In this document: positions 34,033 to 41,080 of the stretch, one piece after another
Layout of the letters: every line of letters begins with the position of its first letter
Numbering within the stretch: the stretch's first letter is position 1
Assembly (NCBI RefSeq): GCF_056746865.1
Contig: NZ_CM163382.1
DNA: 64,000 nt
Reading direction: 5' to 3' (one strand)
Position numbers and translations under genes: made by a program
Notes under the pieces: model-generated
Database searches by the model: none
What the model saw: the letters and a program-made list of their open reading frames with translations, nothing else
What the model was told of the DNA's origin: nothing

Positions 34033-35151
34033 TCAAATAACCAACTTAACCCATTCCTGACCTCGAGTATCGTTATAGCGATCGGTGGTTGCCTGGACTT
34101 TATGTCCTAGTAATGTTTTTGTATCGATACCCTGTGCACGGTACAGCCGTTCTGATAGAGAGCGTTGTTCATGAAATGTTGGCGGAGTTTTTCCTGCTGG
34201 TGGAATTATCCCAGCCAGATCCCGTGCTTTGGCAAAGTAGTCGCTCAGGTTGTCTTTACTCATCGGCTTCGGTTGTTTCTGGTGCCGACTATGGATTAGA
34301 TATGGACTTAATATTCTGTCTCGGCACCCATCAATAACTTCTTTTAACGTTATCCCAATGGCATCACAGCGTAGTGTAAGCGGTAACGCCAGACGCATTC
34401 CGGTTTTTCCCTGGGTGATATGCAAGTGTTCGTTCCACACATCTGAAAAACGCATGTGGCAAATGTCATCACGGCGCTGACCAGTAACAATCGCAAGAAG
34501 CATTGCGTTACGGATAAAGTGTTTTTCAGGCGTTGCATTGTAAATTTTTTGCCAGTCTTCCATGGTGAGCCTGGCTCTGGTTACTTTAGGGATCGGTTTA
34601 CGGGTAGCCTCCGGAGGATTCCATCCAGGAGGAACTTCCCCTGCATGCTGTGCTTCTTTATAAATATCAACCCATAATCCACGATTTACTCTCGCTGTGC
34701 TGACCATGTCTTTATCCAGCCACTCATCCAGTATTAATGCAAAGTCTCTTACTTCCAGTTCTTTCAATGGGTGGTTTCCCAGACGGGAAACCAGGTATGC
34801 AGCCATTCGAGTTTTTTCTTTGTGAGTTGTAGCTGCAATATCTCCATTTTTCAGTCGCGTGTTCTGTATTTTCAGATATCGATCAACCCATGCCTTTAAT
34901 CTGATACCCCGACGTTTTGTTGCTGACGGACTTTCATCAATTTTGCGCATGAAATATTCAGCTTCTGCTGCAGCTATTCGCTGATTGGCTGTGGAAGCGA
35001 TTTTTTCTGCCTTACCTTTGTCTGTTCCGAGTCCGTGAAATTTTCCAGTCACAGGATTTTTATACTGGTAGTAAACTCTGCCAGTTCTGCGATCAAACTT
35101 TTCGTAAAGACCGGCTACGTCAGTGCTGTTTTTTCGTGGCCTCGGTGACAT
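34033..35151 (-). CDS. int: tyrosine-type site-specific integrase (lambda Int family)
   Basis: 372-aa ORF; C-terminal catalytic region ...HEQRSLSERLYRAQGIDTKTLLGHKVQATTDRY... resembles lambda Int R-H-R-Y signature. Confidence 0.9.
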   Translation of the reverse strand: MSPRPRKNSTDVAGLYEKFDRRTGRVYYQYKNPVTGKFHGLGTDKGKAEKIASTANQRIAAAEAEYFMRKIDESPSATKRRGIRLKAWVDRYLKIQNTRLKNGDIAATTHKEKTRMAAYLVSRLGNHPLKELEVRDFALILDEWLDKDMVSTARVNRGLWVDIYKEAQHAGEVPPGWNPPEATRKPIPKVTRARLTMEDWQKIYNATPEKHFIRNAMLLAIVTGQRRDDICHMRFSDVWNEHLHITQGKTGMRLALPLTLRCDAIGITLKEVIDGCRDRILSPYLIHSRHQKQPKPMSKDNLSDYFAKARDLAGIIPPAGKTPPTFHEQRSLSERLYRAQGIDTKTLLGHKVQATTDRYNDTRGQEWVKLVI

Positions 35152-35389
35152 GAGTTAAAATCTCCTTCAGTGCATCATCATCGCCAGTATGAATTTCCGG
35201 CGCAATTCCCGTTTCACCAGGCCCAACAAATACTGCTCGGCGATCTATCAGCCAACGCCCACGAATTTTTTGTGGTCTTGGAACGATGTATCCTAGTTTT
35301 CCGTATTTCACCAGGGTAGTGTTTGTTATTGGGAGACTGAACCGTTTTGGTTTCCACTCGTCGAGCGTTATCAGGTACTGTTCGCTCAT
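35120..35389 (-). CDS. xis: putative excisionase
   Basis: Small basic ORF immediately upstream of and overlapping int; start at MSEQYLITLDEW... chosen from track ORF 35120-35398. Confidence 0.55.
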   Translation of the reverse strand: MSEQYLITLDEWKPKRFSLPITNTTLVKYGKLGYIVPRPQKIRGRWLIDRRAVFVGPGETGIAPEIHTGDDDALKEILTHVTEATKKQH

Positions 35390-35450
35390 GGCTATCACTC
35401 CGGAACGCGCCAGTTGCAGAATATCAACGACAACTGGCGACGGTTGAACA

Positions 35451-37889
35451 TTAAAAATCAGCCTGACTCGGGATCAGTTTTTGCCAGATAACTGAAACGT
35501 ATTTTGCCTGGTAACGGGCGTCATCAAGTGCATTATGGCGCTCACCTTCGAATGGAATAGCCGTTCTGGCATCGAAGTCTATGGCTTTCCCCAGCTCAAC
35601 GATTGTGCGTACATCTCGATCGTTGTAGTAACGCCACGGGCAGGGGATCCCCTGCCGTTCGTATGAACGGCGCAAAATCGTGTTGTCGAAGTTGGCTCCA
35701 TTTCCCCAGACCTGAACAAAAAATTCACCGGAGTTTTCGTCGATAAATTCCCGCAATTGTAACAGTGCATCATCTAACGGGATTTCATCGGTCATAATGG
35801 CAGATTGCGCTTCGCGTGATTGCTTAAGCCACCATTTAATGGTGTCCCGATCAATGACCCCGCCAGCAGTTTCCAGATCGATAGTCTTACTAAATTCCGG
35901 TCCCATATCTCCGGTTTGCGGATCGAAAAATATTGCACCTATTGAGATGATCGGGGCATCAGGATTTTTTCCCATGGTTTCAAGGTCGATCATTAGATGG
36001 TCACACGTCCTGCTGGTGGATGTGATAACGTGATGACCGTTCACCGTAATTAAGGGATCTGCCGTCTCGCCAGTTTCACTATCGCTGGCGTGATCCTGAG
36101 CGCTGCCAGCATTCTCCTTGTGTGGATGTTCAGCGCCTTCCATTTCCTTCGGATCATTTTCCTGAACTTCAACCTGATTCTCTTCATCGAATGTTTCCTG
36201 GTATGTTGCGTCGCCCATCACCGCGCCACAATCAGGGCAGTTGCCGCCGCCGGTCTGACCGCAGGCGGTGCAGATCTTTTCCGGTTCCTGTTGCACTACT
36301 GGTTCAGGTTGTTTCGTTTCTGGCTCGTTTTGTAACGCATTTGGGCTGTTTTGTTCCGCTTTCTGGTCGTTCTGTTCCGATTCTTGCTGGTTCTGGTTTA
36401 CAGAATCGCGGGTTTCAATCCCCTTTACCCATTTCGGATCATTCGGGTCGCTAATCCCTGCAACAAATTCTCCGCGAGAGGCAGCAAGCAACTTATCGGC
36501 GTCAGGCTGGCTGATATTGGCTGCCTGCATAATTTTGTTTACTTCGTCAGCGGTAACTTTTACCTGTGACTTGTCATCCAGCGGCTGCGGGTCCTGATGA
36601 TGTTCAACTGTATCCGCTGCCATTGTTTCAGCCGTTGCCTGTTCATCTGCCATTGCGCCAGATGGTTGCGGGTTATCTTCATCATTTTTTTCTTCTTCTG
36701 TTTTGCACTCAGCAGCCAGTCCGCCGTTAATTTCTTCCAGGATATCTTTTTCCGGTGTATGCCGGGCAGCCATGAGCGTTTCAGCTGTGGGATTCTCGTG
36801 ATCAGTTTCTGTCAGGTTGGCATTGATATACCCCTGAAGGCGCCCCGGGTAGTGATAAAACTCAGGGTGGGCGCTTCGGATAAGTGCAAAAATAGCTGCG
36901 CGGGAATAGTCCAGGATACCAGGGGTTGCGCGAAGTGCTGCGGACCATTCCCTGAACGGACTTTCTTTTTTCAGGACGATTTCTTTTGCGCGACGATAAA
37001 CGCTGCCCGGAATTTCATAAATATTAAAATCCATCGGAAGTGTGGCTGCTGCAATCTCCACATCCAGCGCATCGAAGGTGTGTACTAAATTCGGATTGCG
37101 ATCGGTTTTGTTCCCGCCACCGGCATTTGCACCGGAAGCCGTACGGGTGATACGCGAAACACGATTTCCTTTCATCCACTCTTTTGTCAGCAGACCCCGA
37201 TCAGTGTAATCAGCGTCCAGGTATGCCTCGAAAAAAGCAGTTATCAGTCCCAGGTCTGAATTACCGGGATTAGGGAAAACTTTGTCAGTGTCGCGTACCA
37301 GTTTGTGAAGGTCGCGAATCTCCAGCGGGTCGAGCAGCTTTGTTTTGTGAGAAATGGCCAGGGCAGTAACAGCCGGCAGTTCTTCCGCCCGTGCTATATG
37401 TAATGCCTGAAGTTCTTCCCGTGCAACGTGCGTTACTGGTTTTTCGCTGCTGTGTTGCGCAAGCCAGCGAATGGGCAGCTCCTGACCAGAAACCGGCAGG
37501 AGCATATTCTCCTCAATCTCCGTCATGTCTTCGCCGTTGACGTTGGTATTGTCAGTACTGGCTGGTTTCTCCTGCACGGAGGGAGAGGGCGCGATAAATA
37601 CCATTGTAATGCCATCTTCCCCGCCTTTTTCGTATCGGTTGCAGAATTCGGTATCAAACACGCCTTCAGGTGGAAGGTCATTCACAACGGGTAAATGGAC
37701 GCGAACGGGTTTTTTAAAGTCGTCTTCATCATAATCGTTGTCATCCATTGCGGTAATGCAGCGGGAGATGGCAACAGATAATTTTTTTGCTGTAGTCCAG
37801 TAAAAACCACCTTTAATTCCCAGACGTTTTCTGACTTTGTCATTTTTTGCTTCGCAATATAGCGCAAATTCTTCTTTATCAGTGCTCAT
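35451..37889 (-). CDS. large phage protein with C-terminal DnaQ-like (DEDDh) 3'-5' exonuclease domain
   Basis: 812 aa; C-terminal Exo I (MIDLETMG), Exo II (WGNGANFD) and Exo III (HNALDDARY) motifs; central acidic linker with Cys4 cluster [16 protein letters not shown]. Confidence 0.8.
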
Positions 37890-37981
37890 TGATAAACCTC
37901 ATTACAGATTTAAGGGTGAACAAATCCCTGCCATTGCTGGCATTTTTAATCCGTTGGTATGGTGTTAATATGGCTGGAGGG

Positions 37982-38170
37982 TTATCCAGCCGGTGTTTCG
38001 TTATTCAGGTACAGCGATACTTTTTTTACCGGGAGGCATTCACCAGAAATTTTTTGCTCGTCTCTTGCCTGGAGGCAGGATTCTTTACTGGCATAAATTC
38101 CGGTAATCACATTCTGTGATTCACCCGTTATAAGAAAAACCGTCATCATCAGTGCAAATGCTGAAGTCAT
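37982..38170 (-). CDS. hypothetical small protein with hydrophobic N-terminus
   Basis: 62-aa ORF whose start overlaps the stop of the upstream 62-aa ORF (ATGA). Confidence 0.35.
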   Translation of the reverse strand: MTSAFALMMTVFLITGESQNVITGIYASKESCLQARDEQKISGECLPVKKVSLYLNNETPAG

Positions 38171-38355
38171 TGACGCTCTCCGAAAATACCAAGTTCAAGA
38201 AGAGCAATTCGGGAAAGTATGGAATTATCATTGAGCAGATAAGGCTCATATTTCCTCATATTAATGGCATCTTCAGTAAACTCCCGGTTACTGAGCAGAA
38301 CACCAATATCAAAACAACCTTCAGACGTATTAACGTTTGGTAATAACGTTTCCAT
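38167..38355 (-). CDS. hypothetical small protein
   Basis: 62-aa ORF with GAGGA 7 nt upstream of ATG; first gene of a coupled pair. Confidence 0.35.
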   Translation of the reverse strand: METLLPNVNTSEGCFDIGVLLSNREFTEDAINMRKYEPYLLNDNSILSRIALLELGIFGERQ

Positions 38356-38895
38356 TATCGCGTCCTCAACAATGAATTTTGTGATGCAGTGCCTGGTGCC
38401 TCCAGGTGACGTTAACCAGTTAACAATTAACGCCGGGTTAGTTGATGCTCGTTACGCCAGTAAAAGACCGCCTTACTGCTTTAACTGTTCCGCGTGCGCA
38501 TAGCCGCATTCACCGCATCACAAAATTCACTTTAAAAAGGGCGGCAGAGCAGTCACGGAGTAAAACTGATACCGCCAAACGTCACCAGAAAATTGATAAC
38601 AGAGGGCGTTGCAGCGGGGTTGTCACTTAAGCGTATGGTCAACCTGACAACCCGGTGTCCTCAACGGGGAAGGAATAACCCCGTCATACTTACCGCCGCG
38701 CCATTTCGCGGAGTGTCACAACCGGAAGCGCACGGTCGACGAAAATTTAACGACAGGCTATCTATGAACCAGCTACCTCGCCGTGCGCTTTCGCGTTATG
38801 GTCTGACTTTTCATGGAAATATCCTTTCAGTAAACTGTCAGTGCCGGATTCTTATCCGTGTCCGGCGCACGCACTCTACCTCACCTGTGAATAAA

Positions 38896-39907: not shown

Positions 39908-40010
39908 GTTCTTACGCCTCGGGCTGGCTACTTAACCCCTGACCACTGCCGGGTAACTCGAAGTATTTCCCTGCGTTCTGTGGGGCGGGGTGGGTTGGTA
40001 TGTTGTTAAT

Positions 40011-40024
40011 GTAACAAGAGTTAC
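40011..40024. promoter_or_regulatory. candidate left operator (OL) site
   Basis: GTAACAAGAGTTAC matches the GTAAC-N4-GTTAC dyad also found twice in the cI-cro intergenic region. Confidence 0.5.
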
Positions 40025-40062
40025 CTTTCGAGTCAATACAATGTTGCAAAAGGTACATTTGA

Positions 40063-40098: not shown

Positions 40099-40773
40099 TC
40101 AGTCTAAGTATTGATGTATTTGTGAAACTTTACCTTTAATGGTGTAACCACCATTCAGTTCGATGGGTTTGTAAAGCGGATTCAGTGACAACAAATAGAT
40201 GTTTGGTCCGTCAATCGCAACTTTTTTTAGTGTTACGTTTGGCGTTCCTTCCAATTGGATTAAGATTATTTTTCCCACCAGTTCTCTAATGTTACTTGAG
40301 CATGGTGTGATCAGCACGGTAGATCCGTCGGGGATGGTTGGGAGGCCGTTAGAGTTTGTCATCGCATCTCCCTCAACATGCAATAAAAAAGAGTTTTCAG
40401 CGGTTTTTGTCATGACATCAACCCAGTTATTAATACCAGGAATCTTGGTTACTGGACAACTCATATCCCAATAACCAGCCTGTTCCCACGTTAAAACGGG
40501 CAACCGGGCGATGTTGTCACTAATGTAAGGGTACTGATTCAGACGCAGATCATCGGTTTTATCGTGACAGTCCTTTCCATAAAGAATCCATTCAGGAGAT
40601 TTGGAAAGCAATTTTGACAGTAGATACAAATTCTCACCGTCAGGTTTTGAAGAGCCATTTTCCCATTTTGTTACGGATACACGAGATATGCCGATTGCTT
40701 TCGCAACCTGCTGTTGGGTTAATCCAACGTCTTTTCGACGATTCCGAATACGTTCGCTGATAGTGTTTTTCAT
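40099..40773 (-). CDS. cI: CI-type prophage repressor (N-terminal HTH plus C-terminal S24 LexA-like peptidase)
   Basis: HTH LTQQQVAKAIGISRVSVTKWENG; S24 domain with catalytic GDAM serine context and a downstream Lys; start trimmed to MKNTISER... leaving a 91-bp operator region before cro. Confidence 0.85.
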   Translation of the reverse strand: MKNTISERIRNRRKDVGLTQQQVAKAIGISRVSVTKWENGSSKPDGENLYLLSKLLSKSPEWILYGKDCHDKTDDLRLNQYPYISDNIARLPVLTWEQAGYWDMSCPVTKIPGINNWVDVMTKTAENSFLLHVEGDAMTNSNGLPTIPDGSTVLITPCSSNIRELVGKIILIQLEGTPNVTLKKVAIDGPNIYLLSLNPLYKPIELNGGYTIKGKVSQIHQYLD

Positions 40774-40835
40774 GTAACCAATGTTACTACCAAGTGATGT
40801 TGCTATGGTTGACATTGTTATGTAACTATTGTTAC
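40774..40835. promoter_or_regulatory. right operator region (OR) with two dyad sites between cI and cro
   Basis: GTAACCAATGTTAC (40774-40787) and GTAACTATTGTTAC (40822-40835); consensus -35 TTGACA at 40809-40814. Confidence 0.55.
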
Positions 40836-40864
40836 CCTTCTGCTCGAAATAACAGGAGAGTTTT

Positions 40865-41080
40865 ATGTTCAAAGATGATGTTCTGCGCTATTTCAAAAAA
40901 AAGCGACTAGTAGCTGAGGCTCTTGGAATTTCACATGTGGCTGTTGTGCGGTGGAAAGCAGTTATTCCCAAACTTCGCGCAATGGAACTGGATGAAATTA
41001 CTAACGGTGAATTGAAATACAACCCAGAACTTTACAAGAAGCAGGATAGCACCTCGAACGAAGGAAAGAATGATTCATGA
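40865..41080 (+). CDS. cro: Cro-like HTH regulator
   Basis: 71-aa ORF divergent from cI across the operator region; HTH AEALGISHVAVVRW. Confidence 0.7.
   Translation: MFKDDVLRYFKKKRLVAEALGISHVAVVRWKAVIPKLRAMELDEITNGELKYNPELYKKQDSTSNEGKNDS

Follow-up and report, generated by a model that had tools for sequence, protein, structure and literature searches.

The body of the recombination protein RecE was found joined to a nuclease of another class in a protein encoded by a lambda-like prophage. The DNA analysed is a stretch of 64,000 nucleotides from contig NZ_CM163382.1 (assembly GCF_056746865.1), called the window hereafter, and the protein, 812 amino acids (aa) long, is identical to RefSeq WP_000102132.1. 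Its residues 1-615 correspond to RecE, and they are followed by a domain of the Rv2179c-like Pfam family PF16473. We therefore consider it a RecE-family protein in which the PD-(D/E)XK nuclease has been swapped for one of the DexA type. The fusion is most likely an annealase-independent DNA exonuclease that acts on 3' ends and is produced from the early-left operon of the prophage. Databases already list this union of RecE body and DexA nuclease; our literature search found no paper on such a fusion.

The two halves of the protein

The original prediction had placed a DnaQ-like exonuclease of the DEDDh type in the last 200 residues and had set it apart from the PD-(D/E)XK nucleases of lambda Exo and RecE. 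It was right on both counts. Residues 631-802 matched PF16473 over profile positions 2-177 of 177 (E=1.3e-67, 227.4 bits for a cutoff of 27), and the Pfam scan gave no match to PF12684, the family of the RecE nuclease. All five catalytic residues could be aligned with those of T4 DexA: D635 and E637 of Exo I, within MIDLETMG, with D7 and E9; D735 of Exo II, within GANFDN, with D119; and H785 and D790 of Exo III, spaced as H-x4-D as in the 'h' subtype, with H186 and D191. T4 DexA was also the closest relative in the PDB, both by sequence (8KEL/8KEN, E=1.7e-6, 28% identity) and by fold (Foldseek search with the full-length AlphaFold2 (AF2) model, E=5e-8). No Rv2179c chain was present among the PDB sequence matches at E≤1. 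The next matches by fold were RNase T, Orn/REXO2, a Cas-associated DnaQ domain and Cap18, which is associated with cyclic-oligonucleotide-based anti-phage signalling systems (CBASS). The C-terminal domain of the model has an RNase H-like alpha/beta fold, for which DexA, RNase T, Orn and DnaQ were matched with a Foldseek probability of 1.00, and the full-length model gave structure matches to DEDDh enzymes only. From these motifs and this model, we conclude that the C-terminus is a complete DEDDh exonuclease, of predicted 3'-5' polarity.

The catalytic pentad was kept in 12 of 13 divergent homologues of the fusion. The exception, P0133 (L009:6001-8259), is a DexA-type fusion in which the glutamate of Exo I is replaced by lysine and the aspartate of Exo II by alanine, with the N-terminal body kept. 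This copy has probably lost its catalytic activity.

The N-terminal 400 residues or so, which had been left unassigned, turned out to belong to the RecE family. A BLASTP alignment of residues 58-615 with residues 50-592 of Rac RecE showed 58% identity, acidic linker, conserved peptide and four-cysteine (Cys4) motif included, and Exonuc_VIII (PF06630) was matched over residues 57-189. The homology ends exactly at the start of the RecE nuclease domain, and BLASTP produced no alignment past RecE residue 592. The NCBIfam exoVIII equivalog PRK09709 behaved in the same manner, aligning residues 1-615 with profile positions 1-603 of 877 at 907 bits, under its cutoff of 1269. Modelled by AF2 from an alignment of 88 sequences, residues 1-400 reached a mean predicted local distance difference test score (pLDDT) of 91.8. 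A small alpha/beta domain (aa 1-100) is joined there to a helical domain (aa 120-390), and between them lies a disordered loop (aa 104-112). This N-module model had no Foldseek match in BFVD at E≤1e-3. That the N-module is a homologue of lambda Gam or Mu Gam was considered and rejected, neither sequence nor fold homology being found.

The acidic segment described earlier between the two halves is indeed there. Residues 391-625 have a net charge of -36 and an isoelectric point (pI) of 4.16, within a protein that is very acidic as a whole (pI 4.63, net charge -64). In the full-length AF2 model, residues 389-625 mostly have a pLDDT below 50, except for residues 462-490, the conserved peptide. As for the proposed "Cys4 ribbon", the motif is real and is also found in RecE, but the ribbon is doubtful: its residues have a pLDDT of 36-48, and of about 85 long family representatives only 7 carry the motif, as does RecE. 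It appears to be an optional motif in the family, whose fold is not confidently predicted. The linker DNA also holds an imperfect tandem repeat (36318-36392, 3.5 copies of a 21-nucleotide period, 71% matches), which encodes a stretch rich in Q, E and N immediately N-terminal of the Cys4 motif.

Partner genes, relatives and prevalence

No annealase gene was found between the exonuclease fusion and the cI-like repressor gene, as the original prediction had stated. Searches by tblastn for RecT, Bet, Gam and lambda Exo gave nothing significant in the window, and Pfam revealed no annealase or Gam domain in the small genes between fusion and repressor. The same prophage is present in E. coli CFSAN061770, where the 24 kb compared (37890-62000) show 100% identity, an IS4 insertion aside. 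Its annotation by the Prokaryotic Genome Annotation Pipeline (PGAP) lists RusA and contains no single-strand annealing protein, Erf, Sak and Sak4 having been looked for in this annotation only and not by sequence search. With a DEDDh nuclease and no adjacent annealase, the fusion lies outside the two-component recombinases defined as SynExo (Red, RecET), in which a 5'-3' dsDNA exonuclease goes together with an annealing protein encoded next to it. Nor is the gene, whose C-terminus is DnaQ-like as proposed, a recombination exonuclease that has been characterised and whose partner lies elsewhere.

The type of nuclease and the presence of recT were then compared between loci. Nine loci were of the DexA type, namely the window, Tritos, vB_EcoS-640R1 and the divergent enterobacterial or metagenomic loci P0128, P0133, P0177, P0235, P0137 and P0185. 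In none of them was the fusion followed by recT; the genes led straight to xis/int instead. All five RecE genes of the PD-(D/E)XK type (Rac, P0134, P0148, P0144 and P0163) were followed at once by a recT gene of family PF03837. A hypergeometric calculation by hand gives p of about 5e-4 for this difference, between loci that are not phylogenetically independent.

The diversity of the family was assessed from a search of representatives with residues 1-400, the full-length query being dominated by near-identical E. coli sequences. The family is narrow, with only 213 clusters at 50% identity in the whole library. Among representatives of at least 450 aa, 14 had a DexA-like C-terminus and about 25 a PD-(D/E)XK C-terminus of the RecE type, and the remainder matched neither. 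Ten representatives with a C-terminus of neither type gave no Pfam domain in that region; two of these ten were placed by PHROGs in phrog_7838, "exonuclease". A third class was thereby recognised (n=2; L020:4001-6996 and L021:4001-6717), in which the phrog_7838 C-terminus is followed not by recT but by a Sipho_Gp157 / phrog_253 gene, "Mu Gam-like end protection".

Variation was also seen at the other end of the protein. The exonuclease of phage Tritos (L005:5001-7472) has residues 270-812, approximately, in common with the window protein, with 68% identity overall and 99% in the nuclease domain. Its first 250 residues or so differ: they belong to Pfam YdfE_N and have no similarity to the first 270 or so of the window protein. 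The K-12 Qin pseudogene ydfE (L022:4579-5499), cut by IS2, carries this Tritos-type N-module, and both genes occupy the operon slot of the window gene, with dicB and ydfD on one side and xis/int on the other. Given this alternative N-module, mosaicism in the family extends to both ends of the protein. K-12 YdfE was considered as a truncated copy of the window protein, and this was rejected, its match being with the Tritos-type N-module instead.

Two observations were made on the surroundings of other DexA-like genes. In E. coli CX04, a plasmid-like record contains a standalone DexA-like gene of about 190 aa (L015:3991-4564), frameshifted there, which adjoins a PrtN/excisionase-like gene and an integrase gene of another prophage type; the slot proximal to xis/int thus recurs without a RecE body. 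In DexA-type loci from outside E. coli (L007:5522-5860, L009:5521-5859 and L016:3515-3859), a protein of about 112 aa with a Pfam Rrf2 match is encoded directly 5' of the exonuclease, at the place held by the ydfD-like gene in E. coli loci.

Compared with the 640R1 allele, the ratio of nonsynonymous to synonymous substitution rates (dN/dS) was 0.18 overall, 0.11 in the N-module, 0.33 in the linker and 0.28 in the nuclease domain, this last value coming from the few informative sites of alleles that are 99% identical. The exonuclease fusion is under purifying selection. It is also frequent. Over 5426 complete E. coli genomes, the full-length gene (at least 80% coverage) was found in 1229, and DNA of the nuclease domain in 4113 (76%), with a median of two copies. 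DNA of the Rac-type recE nuclease domain was found in 1730 (32%), with an annotated recT overlapping each of the matches listed. Most carriers of the DexA-type domain are therefore without a Rac RecT partner, and the best-studied form of RecE may be the minority form in E. coli.

Possible roles of the fusion

On balance, and with confidence a little above even, we favour the view that the gene encodes a modular early-lytic RecE-family protein with an exchanged nuclease module, which trims or removes the 3' ends of linear DNA during lytic growth. Transcription would start at the pL-like promoter upon induction or infection, and the product would be a Mg2+-dependent 3'-5' exonuclease acting on DNA 3' ends. 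The RecE-type N-module would tether or deliver the nuclease to the target that this module has in RecE, the most plausible targets being the ends of linear DNA or the host machinery that processes ends. The task of the protein would then likely be the trimming or removal of 3' ends on linear DNA in lytic growth, the N-module adding a separate, conserved function. We infer that the fusion protein cannot take part in two-component single-strand annealing of the RecET or Red type, because 3'-5' degradation would remove the 3' tails needed by annealases instead of creating them.

Several points weigh against this view. Activity, substrate and role of the window protein are predictions from its sequence and model. 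The polarity, and the choice of DNA over RNA as substrate, are taken from 28% identity to DexA, in a family whose founder Rv2179c is an exoribonuclease. With a pI of 4.6, the protein has no obvious DNA-binding surface from sequence, and the promoter assignment is a consensus match only.

RecE/RecT is a workhorse of recombineering, and the function of the first 600 residues or so of RecE has been a puzzle for decades. That the N-terminal body is under purifying selection without the RecE nuclease and RecT argues for a function of its own, and the fusion protein is in this respect a natural separation-of-function allele for the RecE N-terminus. We tentatively propose that the N-terminal body of the RecE/YdfE type is an autonomous unit made up of the folded module, the acidic tether and the conserved peptide. 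Temperate phages of enterobacteria would join to this unit exchangeable nucleases for the processing of ends, whether with a dedicated partner or without any. The pairings would be PD-(D/E)XK with RecT, phrog_7838 with a Mu Gam-like protein, and DexA-like with no partner. If this is true, the DexA-type form, which is the most frequent one in E. coli, would be non-recombinogenic by design, a variant that destroys 3' tails and alters the handling of linear DNA in the induced cell. The protein also raises the question of why so many lambdoid prophages have a 3'-5' exonuclease without an annealase.

What the N-terminal body contributes may be the action of a Gam-like blocker, non-homologous to Gam, or the recruitment of host DNA-end machinery. 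The N-terminus of RecE is dispensable for nuclease activity, and a Gam-like activity has been proposed for it (PMC13048471; PMC11611040). Rac has no gam gene, and lambda Gam left RecET linear assembly unchanged, which is consistent with the proposed Gam-like activity of large RecE (Sawitzke et al., PMC13048471). For the N-terminal body of the fusion, a Gam-like role is possible; homology gives it no support. The interest of the protein would be greater if this body proved to be an autonomous module directed against the host or targeted to DNA ends.

The first of the other explanations is defence against other phages. Kang et al., who solved the structure of T4 DexA, reported that EcD, an E. 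coli homologue of DexA, digests T4 DNA containing 5-hydroxymethylcytosine (5hmC), and that plasmid-borne EcD protects E. coli against T4, a system named HREX (PMC12153337). WP_000102132.1 is among the bacterial DexA homologues of their supplementary list, and the gene is carried by prophages and is very widespread, so it might be asked whether the nuclease selectively digests the 5hmC DNA of superinfecting T-even phages, guarding the lysogen or the induced cell. We regard this as unlikely. EcD is a different, standalone protein, and the RecE-type fusion is not discussed in that paper. The HREX residues for 5hmC are absent, DexA W152 and D169 corresponding to Y755 and A769, in columns that vary among the fusion homologues and lie in a region of low-identity alignment. 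The DexA tetramer residue D90 is missing from EcD but is kept here as D707, in a column that is D or E in 14 of 15 aligned sequences. Moreover, the gene lies within a repressed early-left operon, without a promoter-like site of its own, and it had no match to a PADLOC defence family.

Could the protein be a recombination exonuclease after all, its annealase being supplied in trans (Rac RecT or Bet) or replaced by host RecA/RecFOR? It might for instance trim non-homologous 3' tails, as DexA does in intron homing; DexA has a role in homing-associated recombination (PMC12153337). The gene fills the recombination-module slot of the operon, and it has kept the RecE body, the part that makes full-length RecE more efficient in linear-linear recombination (PMC11611040). 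Nevertheless, the loss of recT strictly tracks the exchange of the nuclease, and Rac-type recE with recT is found in far fewer genomes than the DexA-type domain, as reported above. In addition, 3'-5' exonuclease activity lowers recombination by RecET and Red, whose linear assembly rose more than 65-fold when the host 3'-5' exonuclease ExoI was deleted (PMC13048471). A role of this kind seems doubtful to us.

An exoribonuclease is a further candidate. The C-terminus would in this case act on RNA 3' ends or on short oligonucleotides, for example small RNAs (sRNAs) or signalling nucleotides. Rv2179c, the founder of PF16473, is a 3'-5' exoribonuclease, the fold matches RNase T, Orn/REXO2 and Cap18, and one of the NCBI names is "3'-5' exoribonuclease". 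Against this, the best match both by sequence and by fold is DexA, a DNase, the search of the PDB yielded DexA and no Rv2179c chain at the limit given above, and the body to which the domain is fused is that of a DNA exonuclease. We hold an RNA substrate to be improbable.

Finally, a non-functional mosaic remnant of illegitimate recombination in decaying prophages is scarcely credible and largely excluded: relatives are often truncated (K-12 ydfE by IS2, and many short fragments among the representatives) and P0133 has lost two catalytic residues, but the window ORF is intact over 812 aa with a good ribosome-binding site (RBS), dN/dS values of 0.11-0.33 indicate purifying selection, enterobacterial prophages inserted at different attachment sites share the architecture with 40-60% identity, and sequenced phage genome records (Tritos, vB_EcoS-640R1) contain the gene.

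Prophage setting and known systems

The coordinates are collected in Table 1. The prophage is inserted beside potC, and the local order is potC, int, xis, exonuclease fusion, ydfD-like gene, dicB, DicF, small ORFs, DUF1391 and cI-like repressor, then cro, ydaT and the replication genes. The predicted ORF of the fusion (812 aa, minus strand) is real, with an ATG start, an RBS and an identical RefSeq protein. In the leftward early operon it comes last among the large genes, immediately ahead of xis and int. Only DUF1482, DicB, DicF, three small ORFs and DUF1391 separate it from the repressor. A consensus promoter scan detected no promoter-like site in front of the gene, and inspection of the ORF sequence disclosed no RBS before M633, hence no sign of a standalone start for the nuclease. 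RefSeq names the protein "exonuclease" or "3'-5' exonuclease".

Table 1. Positions in the window of the exonuclease fusion, its parts and its neighbours
Feature	Position	Strand	Basis
Integrase, lambda-type; adjoins potC, prophage end	34033..35151	-	ORF and annotation
Excisionase gene, directly 3' of the fusion gene, no recT between	35120..35398	-	ORF and annotation
Exonuclease-fusion ORF, complete, 812 aa, ATG start	35451..37889	-	ORF list; RefSeq WP_000102132.1
DEDDh 3'-5' exonuclease domain (predicted), DexA/Rv2179c family, aa 626-812	35454..36014	-	Pfam, PDB sequence match, alignment, Foldseek
Acidic linker, predicted disordered, aa 391-625, common to RecE	36015..36719	-	BLASTP, AF2, composition
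CxxC-x7-CxxC (Cys4) motif, aa 540-554	36228..36272	-	Sequence motif
Conserved peptide island within linker, aa 462-490, candidate docking motif	36420..36506	-	Near-identical in RecE; pLDDT 70-81
Folded N-terminal module, aa 1-390, homologous to RecE N-terminal region	36720..37889	-	AF2 and homology
Pfam Exonuc_VIII (PF06630) match, aa 57-189	37323..37721	-	E=2.7e-33
RBS GAGG, 7 nucleotides 5' of the fusion ATG	37897..37900	-	Read directly in the sequence
ydfD-like gene (DUF1482, lysis protein)	37982..38170	-	Leftward operon, 5' of the fusion
dicB	38167..38355	-	Same leftward operon as the fusion
DicF sRNA	38539..38590	-	Rfam, 76.7 bits; same leftward operon
pL-like sigma-70 promoter match, shortly 3' of the repressor gene	40008..40036	-	Consensus match only
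cI-like repressor, LexA/S24 family, boundary of the early-left region	40099..40872	-	Annotation and Pfam

Some features of the prophage may be mentioned besides. DicF, DicB and the DUF1482/YdfD-like gene form a Qin-type dicBF cassette just upstream of the fusion in the leftward operon. With a TTG start, the repressor ORF gives 257 aa; the RefSeq product is shorter, 238 aa. In CFSAN061770, IS4 (L001:11556-12902) is inserted between the exonuclease and ydfD-like genes, at a place matching window positions 37890-37981 approximately, which would uncouple the exonuclease gene from the early-left transcript. PGAP also lists, for that copy of the prophage, hokD, iraM, an esterase of the SASA family (NanS-like) and an Ail/Lom protein, the late region being partly beyond the window, as well as an IS3 insertion near the antiterminator region.

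The place of the gene beside int and xis, whose meaning had appeared unclear, is the usual location of exo-bet-gam (lambda) and recE-recT (Rac). Lambda Red (Exo-Bet-Gam) has the same slot and timing, being encoded in the pL operon next to xis and int. However, the window protein has no homology to Exo, Bet or Gam, its predicted nuclease polarity is opposite, and neither an annealase nor a Gam gene accompanies it. EcD is a compact, standalone E. coli exonuclease of the DexA family, of different sequence and starting with MIDTET (PMC12153337), unlike the window gene, which has a fused RecE-type body and lies inside a repressed operon. T4 DexA itself shares an identical DEDDh pentad with the window domain but contains inserted loops without counterpart there. 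It is a standalone protein of 227 aa from a lytic phage with modified DNA, whereas the window domain is fused to a RecE body. Rac RecE/RecT is encoded, like the window gene, at the end of the early-left operon ahead of xis and int. The difference resides in the C-terminus and in what follows it: the PD-(D/E)XK 5'-3' nuclease of RecE (PF12684; from RecE residue 564 or 606, approximately, to 866) is replaced in the window protein by a DEDDh domain, with no recT downstream.

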